Below, one piece after another: positions 2,884 to 2,911 of a stretch of DNA of 64,000 nt. The translations under genes were made by a program, and so were the position numbers. Every line of letters begins with the position of its first letter. Positions within the stretch are counted from its first letter, which is position 1. A model generated the notes under the pieces. That model was given only the letters and a program-made list of their open reading frames with translations. It was not told where the DNA came from and searched no databases. Source of the stretch: an uncultured Acholeplasmataceae bacterium (GTDB taxonomy: Bacteria > Bacillota_I > Bacilli_A > Acholeplasmatales > Acholeplasmataceae); the NCBI GenBank assembly GCA_963542545.1, contig CAUTWO010000002.1:87075-151074 (forward strand). The letters are read 5' to 3'.

Positions 2884-2911
2884 TGTTCCTATAATATATA
2901 TTATGTAAACC
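2884..2911 (+). other. dif: Candidate dif site (XerC/XerD chromosome-dimer resolution site)
   Basis: Reads TGTTCCTATAA-TATATA-TTATGTAAACC. B. subtilis dif as recalled is ACTTCCTAGAA-TATATA-TTATGTAAACT. That gives 24/28 identical, an identical central hexamer, and 10/11 in the right arm. An XerD-like gene lies 0.7 kb away. Confidence 0.75.

Follow-up and report, generated by a model that had tools for sequence, protein, structure and literature searches.

The 28-mer at positions 2884-2911 comes from an uncultured Acholeplasmataceae bacterium with the standard genetic code and is very probably its chromosomal dif, at which chromosome dimers would be resolved by XerC and XerD. We read it as a functional dif because of its sequence match, its uniqueness in the window (the whole stretch of 64 kb that was analysed), its conservation across genera, the intact XerC and XerD genes and the KOPS-like motifs that converge on it. 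The same lines of evidence bear out the first-pass annotation, which had proposed a near-canonical Firmicute-type dif site beside xerD. The coordinates of the site and of the features surrounding it are given in Table 1.

The 28-mer is composed of two 11-bp arms showing partial inverted symmetry and a 6-bp centre, and it fits the phylum consensus. Reference dif sequences were taken from the supplement of Kono et al. (2011, PMC3025954). The window site matches dif of B. subtilis 168 (ACTTCCTAGAATATATATTATGTAAACT) at 24 of the 28 positions, with an identical central hexamer and 10 of 11 positions in the XerD arm, which reproduces the counts given in the annotation. It shares 25/28 positions with dif of S. 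aureus (ACTTCCTATAATATATATTATGTAAACT) and 24/28 with the predicted dif of A. laidlawii PG-8A (AGTGCCTATAATGTATATTATGTTAACC). The site is unique in the 64 kb when both strands are considered; the runner-up match, either to the B. subtilis sequence or to the window's own site, has 9 mismatches. The number of sites with up to 4 mismatches expected by chance is 8e-5 per window and 1e-5 per spacer, and 100 dinucleotide shuffles yielded no site at up to 3 mismatches.

Table 1. Features of the dif region in the window (strand left empty where none applies).
Feature	Position	Strand	Remark
dif 28-mer TGTTCCTATAATATATATTATGTAAACC	2884..2911	+	11-6-11 layout; matches published dif sites
XerC-side arm TGTTCCTATAA	2884-2894	+	arm assigned by homology to B. 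subtilis/E. coli dif
Central region TATATA	2895-2900	+	same as B. subtilis central hexamer
XerD-side arm TTATGTAAACC	2901-2911	+	arm assigned by homology to B. subtilis/E. coli dif
AGTGGAGCGGACAAG	2927-2941	+	first part of conserved module 2927..2966 beside XerD arm
DnaA-box-like 9-mer TGTGGGAAT	2950-2958	+	+39 from dif; 2 mismatches to TGTGNAWAA
DnaA-box-like 9-mer TGTGGATTA	2958-2966	+	+47 from dif; 1 mismatch to TGTGNAWAA
GAAGAAG and GAAGTAG	2582-2588 and 2585-2591	+	~300 nt from XerC arm; pointing to dif
AGAAGTA within AGAGAAGTAA	2792..2798	+	~90 nt from XerC arm; non-coding; pointing to dif
Eight GAAGAAG/GTAGAAG/GAAGTAG (3964..9819)	starts 3964, 4992, 5526, 6713, 7635, 9745, 9810, 9813	-	XerD-arm side; pointing to dif
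Gene-free eno-xerD spacer, 2,536 bp	1081..3616		25% G+C; contains dif; largest intergenic region in window
Palindrome AGTTTA-N7-TAAACT (region 1164..3618)	1164, 1332, 2300, 2437 (exact); 1872, 3438, 3600 (1 mismatch)		
Half-sites AAAGTTTAA	1369, 2178, 2253, 2637, 3436, 3531 (+); 1176, 3120, 3573 (-)	+ and -	often extending to AAAAAGTTTAA
Inverted repeat AAAAAAAGTTTAAC ... GTTAAACTTTTTTT	3527..3590		T runs on both strands; just 3' of xerD stop
xerD, 302 aa	3617..4525	-	transcribed toward dif; XerD-arm side
xerC-like second tyrosine recombinase gene, 312 aa	25885..26823	+	between ung and dut

Recombinase genes and conservation of the site

In agreement with the annotation, which had an XerD-like gene ending 0.7 kb away, the stop codon of xerD is located 705 nt from the XerD arm. 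The encoded protein scored 291 bits with the NCBIfam XerD model TIGR02225, under the equivalog cutoff of 329.6, and 287.3 bits with the tyrosine recombinase model PRK00283, above the cutoff of 279. Residues 6-286 could be aligned with E. coli XerD (1A0P), and the RVSEL, GKGxKER, HxxRH, LGH and IYT motifs are all retained. A look-up of this XerD in public assemblies returned no exact match on record. The XerC-like gene that had been placed at 25897..26823 is present and ends at 26823, but it starts at 25885, position 25897 being an internal ATG in the same frame. The best model for its product was NCBIfam XerC TIGR02224 (282.8 bits, under the equivalog cutoff); its PRK00283 score of 258.8 bits is below the cutoff of 279, and it also aligns with E. 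coli XerD (1A0P) with the catalytic motifs retained. Its assignment as a putative XerC and not XerD is based solely on slightly higher HMM scores. Judged by their catalytic R-K-H-R-H-Y motifs, which are kept in both, the two genes would encode intact XerC and XerD proteins.

By homology with the E. coli and B. subtilis systems, XerC would bind the left arm (TGTTCCTATAA) and XerD the right arm (TTATGTAAACC). On a dimeric chromosome two dif sites would synapse, and strand exchange across TATATA would then give monomers at cell division. A translocase of the FtsK/SpoIIIE type would probably be guided by GAAGAAG/GTAGAAG-type polar motifs that point to dif from both sides. The recombinase-to-arm pairing, the FtsK dependence and the terminus location are what we infer in this scheme.

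Conservation of the 28-mer in relatives, which the annotation had put forward as a check, was indeed found. The whole 28-mer is identical in Alteracholeplasma palmae, even though XerD is only 42% identical there; the dif of Tenericutes bacterium MO-XQ has 2 differences, and the core is identical in the relatives L001, L002 and L006. In all five genomes the site occupies the orthologous place, always downstream of hemW-xerD, and in A. palmae and MO-XQ the distance to these genes is 2.7-3.1 kb, the site again being surrounded by gene-free DNA. Among the nearest public relatives, the Acholeplasmataceae metagenome-assembled genomes ERR102288xx, the 236-kb contig CAUTMM010000001.1 carries the site at ~144.2 kb. 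Relatives whose XerD is 88% identical have a sequence 100% identical to positions 2871-2930, whereas their spacer is only ~40-60% identical. The identity profile of the window against L002 reaches a 100% peak at dif, which is the best-conserved stretch of the 2.5-kb spacer among relatives. The site is exactly conserved over at least three genera while the surrounding non-coding DNA has diverged.

A scan of 185,579 species genomes with TATAATRTATATTATGTWAACC gave at least 120 loci, with one match each and all in different assemblies. Among the matches listed, dif is never located within a reading frame that is open for at least 110 codons. Also among the matches listed, the linkage of xerD to dif and their relative orientation are the same in at least 33 genomes. 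We had not expected so consistent a linkage, which is a trait of the clade.

Polar motifs, GC skew and the replication terminus

In L. lactis, GAAGAAG has been shown by experiment to be the FtsK-orienting motif (KOPS; Nolivos et al. 2012, PMC3384302); for S. pyogenes the same study gives GTAGAAG as the best candidate. FtsK is expressed in A. laidlawii (PMC3139596); no ftsK gene is present among the 30 window ORFs searched. All 11 motifs of the GAAGAAG family at 345-9813 of the window point toward dif; L002 has 24 of its 26 motifs in this orientation, and L001 has 13 of its 15. In these three loci the orientation of the motifs switches exactly at dif, although the flanking genes share one orientation. 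On the XerC-arm side, the position of the motif at 2582..2591 is conserved in L001 and L002 and across Acholeplasmataceae, and the site equivalent to 2792..2798 reads (G/A)(T/A)AGAAG in other Acholeplasmataceae. The eight motifs on the XerD-arm side sit inside minus-strand genes, so that coding-strand bias contributes to the polarity on that side.

Motif counts in other genomes were confined to DNA close to dif, with no more than 4-12 kb taken from each. Among the matches listed, 47 genomes together have 50 copies of GAAGAAG in the non-coding DNA beside the XerC arm, all of them oriented toward dif (50:0), and in the non-coding flanks the ratios are 31:0 for GTAGAAG (47 genomes) and 28:0 for AGAAGTA. 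When up to 4 kb on either side is considered, GAAGAAG is found at 163:14 toward dif in 57 genomes among the matches listed. Of the 35 composition-matched permutations, GAAGAAG is by far the most abundant heptamer and the second most skewed one (within 4 kb, among the matches listed). It emerged without prior assumption, and GAAGAAG/GTAGAAG is likely to be the FtsK-orienting motif of the whole low-G+C clade. Two other motifs were rejected as local guides: the E. coli KOPS GGGNAGGG is essentially absent, with one copy in five loci, and the B. subtilis SRS GAGAAGGG has no copy near the site in five loci.

A terminus-type local change in GC skew, the left flank having the higher value, accompanies the site at 57 of 65 loci and at 32 of 34 Mollicute-type loci among the matches listed, and dif of MO-XQ is located at 51.3% of its record. 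[quoted passage not shown] 2011, PMC3025954). We found nothing usable in the literature on the skew or terminus of A. palmae. In the window lineage the skew is flat across dif, a terminus-type change being present in 0 of 4 genomes (window, L001, L002 and L098), and from ~30 kb the window skew has the sign opposite to that expected. GC skew was rejected as proof of a terminus in this lineage, where it is flat and uninformative. Since eno-smpB-alaS and xerD-hemW-lepA flank dif in one direction, gene orientation does not converge at the site either. By analogy with the relatives, the window dif may be located at the replication terminus, as the annotation had proposed.

It is possible, though in our judgement rather doubtful, that dif is functional but lies off the fork-meeting point in the window lineage, a rearrangement having brought eno-smpB-alaS alongside so that the site marks a local polarity junction only. 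The flat skew, weakly positive on both sides, and the single orientation of the flanking genes would fit such an event. So would the absence of the ancestral neighbours deoB and ansA, which are present in A. palmae, MO-XQ and many others; no ansA/deoB pseudogene remnants were detected in the spacer by tblastn. Past ~5 kb toward eno and past ~19 kb toward xerD, the polar motifs also cease to share one orientation. Nonetheless, these motifs flip exactly at dif, the DNA on the eno side is limited to 9 kb, and the skew values are small (<=0.05) and noisy. Moreover, even a displacement by 10-30 kb would leave the site within the terminus region, because the dif-to-shift distances of Kono et al. (PMC3025954) are ~1.4% and at most ~3%.

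The gene-free spacer and its conserved modules

The spacer containing dif stands out in the window by its size, the next largest intergenic regions measuring 476 and 475 bp. Relatives have the same gene order and spacer length (2.5 kb in L001, 2.6 kb in L002). Among the matches listed, the clade generally has gene-free DNA next to the XerC arm, with a median of 560 nt, often ~960-1000 nt, and with positionally conserved motifs. Such a conserved non-coding island beside dif was unexpected. The proposal of the annotation that dif explains its unusual surroundings holds for the gene-free DNA, which is general beside dif in the clade; the lineage-specific repeats and the conserved motifs are not explained by dif.

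The repeats are concentrated in the spacer. Six copies of the palindrome are located wholly inside it, versus 0.07 expected from shuffling, and the copy at 3600 overlaps the xerD stop. All intergenic copies of AAAGTTTAA in the window are confined to the spacer. In other Acholeplasmataceae one copy of the palindrome is conserved ~880 nt from dif. The inverted repeat at 3527..3590 has a counterpart in L002, an equivalent hairpin with a different loop, and from its sequence it is possibly a bidirectional terminator. A scan of the spacer for promoter and terminator consensus sequences gave no excess over shuffles and missed this repeat on account of its A+T-rich stem. Rfam searches returned nothing credible (gathering thresholds for the window and 18 related loci; E<=1 for the spacer), and scans for tRNA and tmRNA in the window and the 18 loci were negative. 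The gene-free DNA of 17 genomes contains no conserved small ORFs, apart from patterns that echo the conservation of the nucleotides.

Gene-free A+T-rich DNA on one side of the site might be taken to mean that the 28-mer is the attL or attR of an Xer-exploiting mobile element, of which the 1.8 kb of gene-free DNA on the XerC-arm side would be the decayed remains. Such elements may exist for this group, as the 6.8-kb viral contig L132 bears a well-formed dif-like site (AGTTCGTATAATATATATTATGTTAACC); only 2 viral contigs have the core pattern. We consider this origin very improbable. A second dif-like site is missing, the next-best sequence in the spacer having 9-10 mismatches and being really a copy of the palindrome. 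The spacer has no similarity to any of 50,697 phage records, and the equivalent stretch in relatives is without conserved ORFs. An integrated mobile element of this type (IMEX) would have a second, often degenerate, dif-like site at its other end and phage or element genes in between; no second site with fewer than 9 mismatches is present in the window. The retention of gene order and length in relatives and the generality of the gene-free XerC-arm-side stretch in the clade also argue against a decayed element.

It seems no more credible that the adjoining recombinase is a dedicated invertase or integrase and that the 28-mer is its private target for phase variation or integration. Gene and site are tightly linked in a fixed orientation in at least 33 genomes, as is the case for XerS/difSL and recalls the Xer-like invertases of Mycoplasma, but the 64 kb contain no direct or inverted partner site and encode a second Xer paralogue. 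Moreover, the site is the canonical XerCD dif consensus common to Bacillus and Staphylococcus, and in relatives it is located at local terminus-type skew changes, with polar motifs converging on it. Finally, a chance near-palindrome in a low-complexity spacer, suggested by an A+T content of 75% and by A/T at 22/28 positions of the B. subtilis consensus and 21/28 of the window site, is effectively refuted by the expected numbers given above and by exact cross-genus conservation amid diverging flanks.

Besides the dif site itself, the spacer contains a module at 2927..2966 that is 100% conserved in L001, L002, L004 and L006, with diverging flanks. The DnaA-box consensus is TTATCCACA, its relaxed form being TTWTNCACA (complement TGTGNAWAA). 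Among the matches listed, 30 of 50 Mollicute-type genomes have a TGTGNAWAA-like box with its start at precisely +39 from the XerD arm, and a box is present at +31 to +61 in 41 of these 50 versus 2 of 63 other genomes. A perfect TGTGGATAA, the exact complement of the consensus TTATCCACA, is found at +39 in relatives such as MO-XQ, L027, L055, L070, L075 and L129. The fixed position of a DnaA-box-like motif at the XerD arm was not expected. The rest of the window has fewer DnaA-box-like motifs than chance would give (11 versus 22 expected), for which reason the TGTGGATAA-like box was rejected as a frequent polar (KOPS-like) motif. A structured RNA was also rejected: RNAalifold predicted 0 pairs for 20 genomes, the alignment of which is essentially ungapped, with a single 1-nt gap.

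We tentatively propose, as a possibility that we rate below even, that dif is more than a bare 28-bp site and forms the core of a conserved non-coding "dif island" in Mollicutes of the Acholeplasma type (Acholeplasmataceae, Anaeroplasmataceae, Izemoplasmatales and allied uncultured lineages). On the XerD-arm side the island would comprise an xerD gene that is always nearby and, 39 nt from the arm, two DnaA-box-like motifs following a GCGG-containing box; on the XerC-arm side it would comprise FtsK-guide-like GAAGAAG/GTAGAAG motifs in fixed places. The palindrome GTTTA-N7-TAAAC would form its boundary. If true, the fixed spacing would suggest a DNA-binding protein that sits next to XerD and regulates dimer resolution or its timing. 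DnaA itself might play this role, which would link initiator and terminus, or else another accessory factor.

Comparison with known dif and Xer systems

As a dif site, the 28-mer is a routine and expected feature. It would provide a landmark for the terminus-proximal part of the genome of an uncultured member of the Acholeplasmataceae, and its position is useful for orienting replichores and for checking assemblies. Nor is dif new for this order, since Kono et al. (2011, PMC3025954) predicted that of A. laidlawii, their only Tenericutes entry, by computation and without a description of its flanks. A. laidlawii belongs to the same order as the window organism and its site shares the ...AACC end, whereas the window carries the TGTTCC...AAACC variant, exactly as A. 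palmae and many Acholeplasmataceae metagenome-assembled genomes do. The B. subtilis/Firmicute XerC/XerD (CodV/RipX)-dif system has the same 11-6-11 layout, TATATA centre and two Xer paralogues, and its site is likewise intergenic and single-copy (here, within the window). The outer bases differ, being TG...CC in the window and AC...CT in B. subtilis.

The position of xerD sets the window apart from other Firmicute dif loci: it is 0.7 kb from the site here, whereas Kono et al. (2011, PMC3025954) place xerD genes mostly near the origin. A recombinase gene that adjoins its site in a fixed orientation is likewise found for XerS/difSL of streptococci and XerH/difH of Helicobacter and Campylobacter. 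Unlike these, the window has a classical 28-bp XerCD dif, not a 31-bp difSL or a difH, and a second Xer paralogue is kept. With the L. lactis KOPS the polar motifs share the same heptamer, 5'-GAAGAAG-3', which is over-represented, strongly strand-skewed and flips at dif; in the loci studied here copies in addition hold conserved non-coding positions, at about -300 and -100 beside dif. The occurrence of GAAGAAG/GTAGAAG in the Mollicute-type clade thus extends the Lactococcus result.

The dif loci of Bacillaceae and Carnobacteriaceae that were examined lack both the clade-specific module and the long gene-free island (2 of 63, among the matches listed). Like the DnaA-box clusters of datA and of B. 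subtilis, the window motif is DnaA-box-like, as a candidate judged from its sequence; the titles and abstracts of the literature consulted contain no description of a DnaA-box cluster next to dif. To our knowledge, accessory factors for Xer recombination have so far been known mainly at plasmid sites, and the +39 element would offer a testable lead to such a factor for chromosomal Xer recombination. With the accessory sequences of the plasmid Xer sites cer and psi it shares the presence of a conserved, protein-binding-like module at a fixed distance from the core. The window module, however, is only ~40-60 nt long and is located on the XerD-arm side, whereas the accessory sequences of cer and psi are located on the XerC side.

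A dif site between eno and xerD

The 28-mer between eno and xerD reads exactly as the first-pass annotation had given it, and the Bacillus subtilis dif cited there agrees with the sequence listed for strain 168, ACTTCCTAGAATATATATTATGTAAACT (Kono et al. 2011, PMC3025954 supplement), which the window site matches at 24 of 28 positions. The match is 25/28 to S. aureus dif, and 24/28 to A. laidlawii PG-8A AGTGCCTATAATGTATATTATGTTAACC, the sole Tenericutes dif predicted by Kono et al. 2011 (PMC3025954). The runner-up in the whole window, both strands searched, had 9 mismatches, and the chance expectation for sites as near the B. 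subtilis dif is 8e-5 at the base composition of the window and 1e-5 in the A+T-rich spacer.

Conservation in relatives, proposed as a check on the site, was observed. The same 28-mer is found in Alteracholeplasma palmae J233 (complete genome; XerD 42% identical), in a gene-free gap of 1.4 kb with converging gene orientation, 2.7 kb downstream of hemW-xerD-deoB. At about 1,060,250 of 2,067,902 bp (51.3% of the record), Tenericutes bacterium MO-XQ has a version with two mismatches in an equivalent gap of 1.9 kb, and the 25-nt dif core is identical in all three related contigs that extend to the site. Contigs with 97% and 88% identical XerD have the gene order lepA-hemW-xerD, a 2.5-2.6-kb gene-free spacer and eno-smpB-alaS in common. 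The spacer is mostly just 30-60% identical between the window and L002, the related contig with a 2.6-kb spacer, and identity peaks at 100% across 2871-2930, with dif at its centre. This conservation excludes a chance match.

The XerD-like ORF beside dif is intact and keeps its catalytic motifs, and the XerC-like gene was confirmed as a second Xer paralogue. Both proteins align to E. coli XerD (1A0P) almost end to end and retain the RVSEL, GKGxKER, HxxRH, LGH and IYT motifs. The window XerD is 87-97% identical to proteins of uncultured assemblies and 47-48% to two metagenomic proteins, and identity to the XerD of named Acholeplasma and 'Tenericutes' is about 39-45%; in the genome scan the nearest relatives, among the matches listed, were uncultured Acholeplasmataceae genomes. 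ORFs of the window are intact under the standard genetic code. Further neighbours of dif are hemW, lepA and a CNNM/CorC transporter gene, and elsewhere the window carries ordinary housekeeping genes. The window is compact, and the gene-free spacer at 1081-3616 (2,536 bp, 25% G+C) is its longest intergenic region, fivefold longer than the next. Five large ORFs (772, 503, 846, 656 and 761 aa) at 15260-21695, 35452-37422 and 38360-40645 have no Pfam match and may encode lineage-specific surface proteins; the block at 18-22 kb has a G+C content of only 23-27%.

That the site was left by an integrated Xer-exploiting element is unlikely: a second dif-like site is absent from the window, conserved ORFs are absent, and the spacer is without phage similarity and is conserved in relatives. 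It is likewise unlikely to be the private target of an invertase, given that it has no partner site in the window, that it has the canonical XerCD consensus as its sequence, and that a second Xer paralogue is present. We regard it with high confidence as a real dif site. It belongs to the Firmicute-type XerC/XerD-dif family in sequence and layout, recombinases, conserved intergenic position and convergence of polar motifs. Since a dif in Acholeplasma was already predicted computationally in 2011, the window site adds a member to a known kind.

Coordinates of dif and of the features around it (window positions unless a locus is named)
Feature	Position	Strand or side	Remarks
eno	1-1080	-	
dif	2884-2911	+	TGTTCCTATAA-TATATA-TTATGTAAACC
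Conserved flanking module	2927-2966	XerD-arm side of dif	also in L008, L010 and about 40 of L011-L130
xerD	3617-4525	-	
xerC-like gene	25885-26823		between ung and dut; best match is the XerC model
AGTTTA-N7-TAAACT copies	1164, 1332, 1872, 2300, 2437, 3438, 3600		also 5406 inside hemW; L002 11135-13417
Asparaginase-family gene by dif	L008 12510-13484; L010 12831-13808		also in L027, L043, L055, L070, L075, L080

dif loci across the clade and the module on the XerD-arm side

When a single genome from each of 185,579 species was scanned for the pattern TATAATRTATATTATGTWAACC, at least 120 loci were obtained. Among the matches listed, every locus had a single match and came from a separate assembly, dif was never inside an open frame of at least 110 codons, and about half of the loci belonged to Acholeplasmataceae, Anaeroplasmataceae, Izemoplasmatales, phytoplasmas and allied uncultured 'Bacilli'. 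GC skew, counted over those listed loci with at least 1.5 kb on each side, changed from positive to negative across dif in 57/65; for Mollicute-type loci alone the count was 32/34. Among loci L008, L010 and L013-L129, at least 33 genomes have a XerD homologue 0.7-5.7 kb from dif; without exception it lies beyond the XerD arm, with transcription directed toward dif, most commonly in the order lepA-hemW-xerD-deoB.

Seven loci labelled Carnobacterium, Granulicatella or 'Streptococcus' (L023, L030, L046, L062, L072, L078, L088) have the variant site ACTTAGTATAATATATATTATGTAAACC in common, with nearly identical XerD-arm flanks (about 80 nt shown) and a more variable last ~25 nt on the XerC side, which suggests that these loci are closely related, were mis-binned or share an element. 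L132, a 6.8-kb viral contig (IMGVR_UViG_3300031994_003712), also has a well-formed dif-like site, AGTTCGTATAATATATATTATGTTAACC, at 708-735, and may be an element that exploits Xer in a Mollicute-type host.

The proposal that dif explains its unusual surroundings stands in part only, as the flanking module, the gene-free DNA on the XerC side and the lineage repeats exceed a plain dif site. The XerD-arm flank aligns nearly ungapped between distant genera, with the consensus dif-A..(16 nt)..ACTGTGCGGnCAAT..(7 nt)..GTGTGGATAAGTTG; ACTGTGCGGnCAAT lies at about +17 (in nt from the XerD arm) and is followed by one or two DnaA-box-like 9-mers. Their form TGTGNAWAA, the complement of the DnaA-box consensus, often occurs beside dif as a perfect TGTGGATAA. 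Among the matches listed, 30 of 50 Mollicute-type genomes have such a box with its start at exactly +39, and a DnaA-box-like 9-mer lies at +31 to +61 in 41/50 Mollicute-type versus 2/63 other genomes. A second copy is frequent, at +47 or +48. The window boxes, TGTGGGAAT (2950) and TGTGGATTA (2958), are both fully kept in relatives. Across the rest of the window these 9-mers are rarer than chance, which rules them out as a dispersed polar motif.

About 165-190 nt from dif the flank runs, in many genomes, into the promoter of an asparaginase gene; numerous Acholeplasmataceae and Izemoplasmatales have a gene of this family beside the XerD arm, preceded by an extended -10 promoter and a conserved TCGAAAAnCGA-like palindrome. 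The 9-mer persists where the asparaginase gene is missing or the neighbour faces the opposite way, and the window lineage has lost the asparaginase gene and deoB and retained the module. RNAalifold detected no RNA structure in the module. We consider the module a putative protein-binding element tied to dif, and this flanking architecture is the part of the finding that deserves attention.

Gene-free DNA and repeats in the spacer

Among the matches listed, gene-free DNA beside the XerC arm has a median length of 560 nt in Mollicute-type genomes versus 106 nt in other groups, and it reaches about 960-1000 nt in many Acholeplasmataceae. At its far end, directly past the terminator of the neighbouring gene, lies a conserved palindrome, GTTTAGTATATATAAAC, which many Acholeplasmataceae have as a single copy, about 880 nt from dif in eleven loci (L010, L019, L022, L036, L043, L050, L053, L075, L091, L096, L108). 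In the window lineage this palindrome (AGTTTA-N7-TAAACT) is amplified, with six copies in the spacer and one overlapping the xerD stop (0.07 expected), and is probably a protein-binding site. The half-site AAAGTTTAA, often extended to AAAAAGTTTAA, occurs nine times in the spacer (1176-3581) and in none of the window's other intergenic regions; it is present in L002 and absent from A. palmae and MO-XQ. One inverted pair directly downstream of xerD resembles a bidirectional terminator.

Other features of the spacer were noted. Motifs of the TGTGAAT type, (T/C/A)GTG(A/G)AT, are in local ten-fold excess around dif (2624-3025 and 3324) and include an inverted pair, AATTCACAG-N14-CTGTGAATT, at 2692-2725; only three are retained in L002. 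The second-best conserved island, 2750-2791 (TTTTTCATATTCATTTTTCAAATGTGAATATAAAAAAG; 93% identical to L002), lies about 95-130 nt off the XerC arm and contains the inverted repeat ATATTCA-N11-TGAATAT. Another, 3174-3248 in the dif-xerD interval, has a GACGC...GCGTC inverted repeat across about 60 nt and a DnaA-box-like TGTGGGTTG, which reads TGTGGGTAA in L002.

Polar motifs and the replication terminus

CTTCTTC was seen in non-coding gaps, and 7-mers were then counted without bias in the gene-free XerC-arm-side stretches of 47 genomes among the matches listed (36.7 kb). GAAGAAG occurred 50 times toward dif and never in the opposite direction (2.3 expected); the other top strand-skewed 7-mers were AGTAGAA (32:0), GTAGAAG (31:0) and AGAAGTA (28:0). 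Within 4 kb on each side of 57 sites among the matches listed, GAAGAAG counted 163:14 toward dif, against a background ratio of about 3:1 that is due to gene orientation. Among the 35 permutations of the same composition it ranked first by far in abundance and second in skew, behind AGAAGAG. On the XerC-arm side, the positions of GAAGAAG-type motifs about 300 and 100 nt away from dif are conserved.

All 11 GAAGAAG-family motifs at 345-9813 of the window are oriented to dif, including one antisense to eno and two in non-coding DNA, which lie about 300 and 90 nt off the XerC arm. The proportions are 24/26 in L002 and 13/15 in L001 (the related contig with a 2.5-kb spacer), where the motifs flip exactly at dif despite the same gene orientation on either side. 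This convergence supports a chromosome-polarity junction at the site.

GC skew and gene orientation in the window lineage do not support the claim that dif marks the replication terminus. Local skew there has no sign change at dif (in xerD orientation, about +0.02 on the xerD flank and between +0.03 and +0.05 on the eno flank), a terminus-type change is seen in 0 of 4 loci, and genes at the window dif do not converge. Beyond about 19 kb the motifs have mixed directions, and farther out, from about 30 kb, the sign of the skew is opposite to that expected. The only live alternative is a true dif that lies, in this lineage, at some distance from the actual terminus. Displacement by tens of kb would still be inside the range reported for other bacteria, and the A. 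laidlawii dif lies 0.038% of the genome away from the GC-skew shift point (Kono et al. 2011, PMC3025954). Remnants of the ancestral neighbours deoB and ansA were sought in the window lineage and none were found, so this lineage has been rearranged beside dif. On balance, we think it likely that dif is within the terminus region.

Genes of the window change orientation at about 13.3 kb, where they diverge, and at about 50.7 kb, where they converge, giving blocks 3617-13288, 13266-50704 and 50807-63968. A weak negative-to-positive skew change lies near 30 kb, inside a co-oriented gene block, and several GAAGAAG copies are antisense to genes at 51 to 64 kb. Together these suggest rearrangement near dif in the window lineage.

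A limited literature check yielded no prior description of the xerD-dif linkage, the clade-wide GAAGAAG/GTAGAAG polarity or, especially, the fixed-distance module. The position of xerD near dif in at least 33 genomes differs from its typically origin-proximal location in Kono et al. 2011 (PMC3025954). FtsK is expressed in A. laidlawii (PMC3139596), and the motifs suggest that GAAGAAG-type sequences would guide the translocase to dif by the usual mechanism. GTAGAAG is the best KOPS (FtsK-orienting polar sequence) candidate in S. pyogenes, and GAAGAAG at these dif loci is the same heptamer as the experimentally established KOPS of Lactococcus lactis (PMC3384302).
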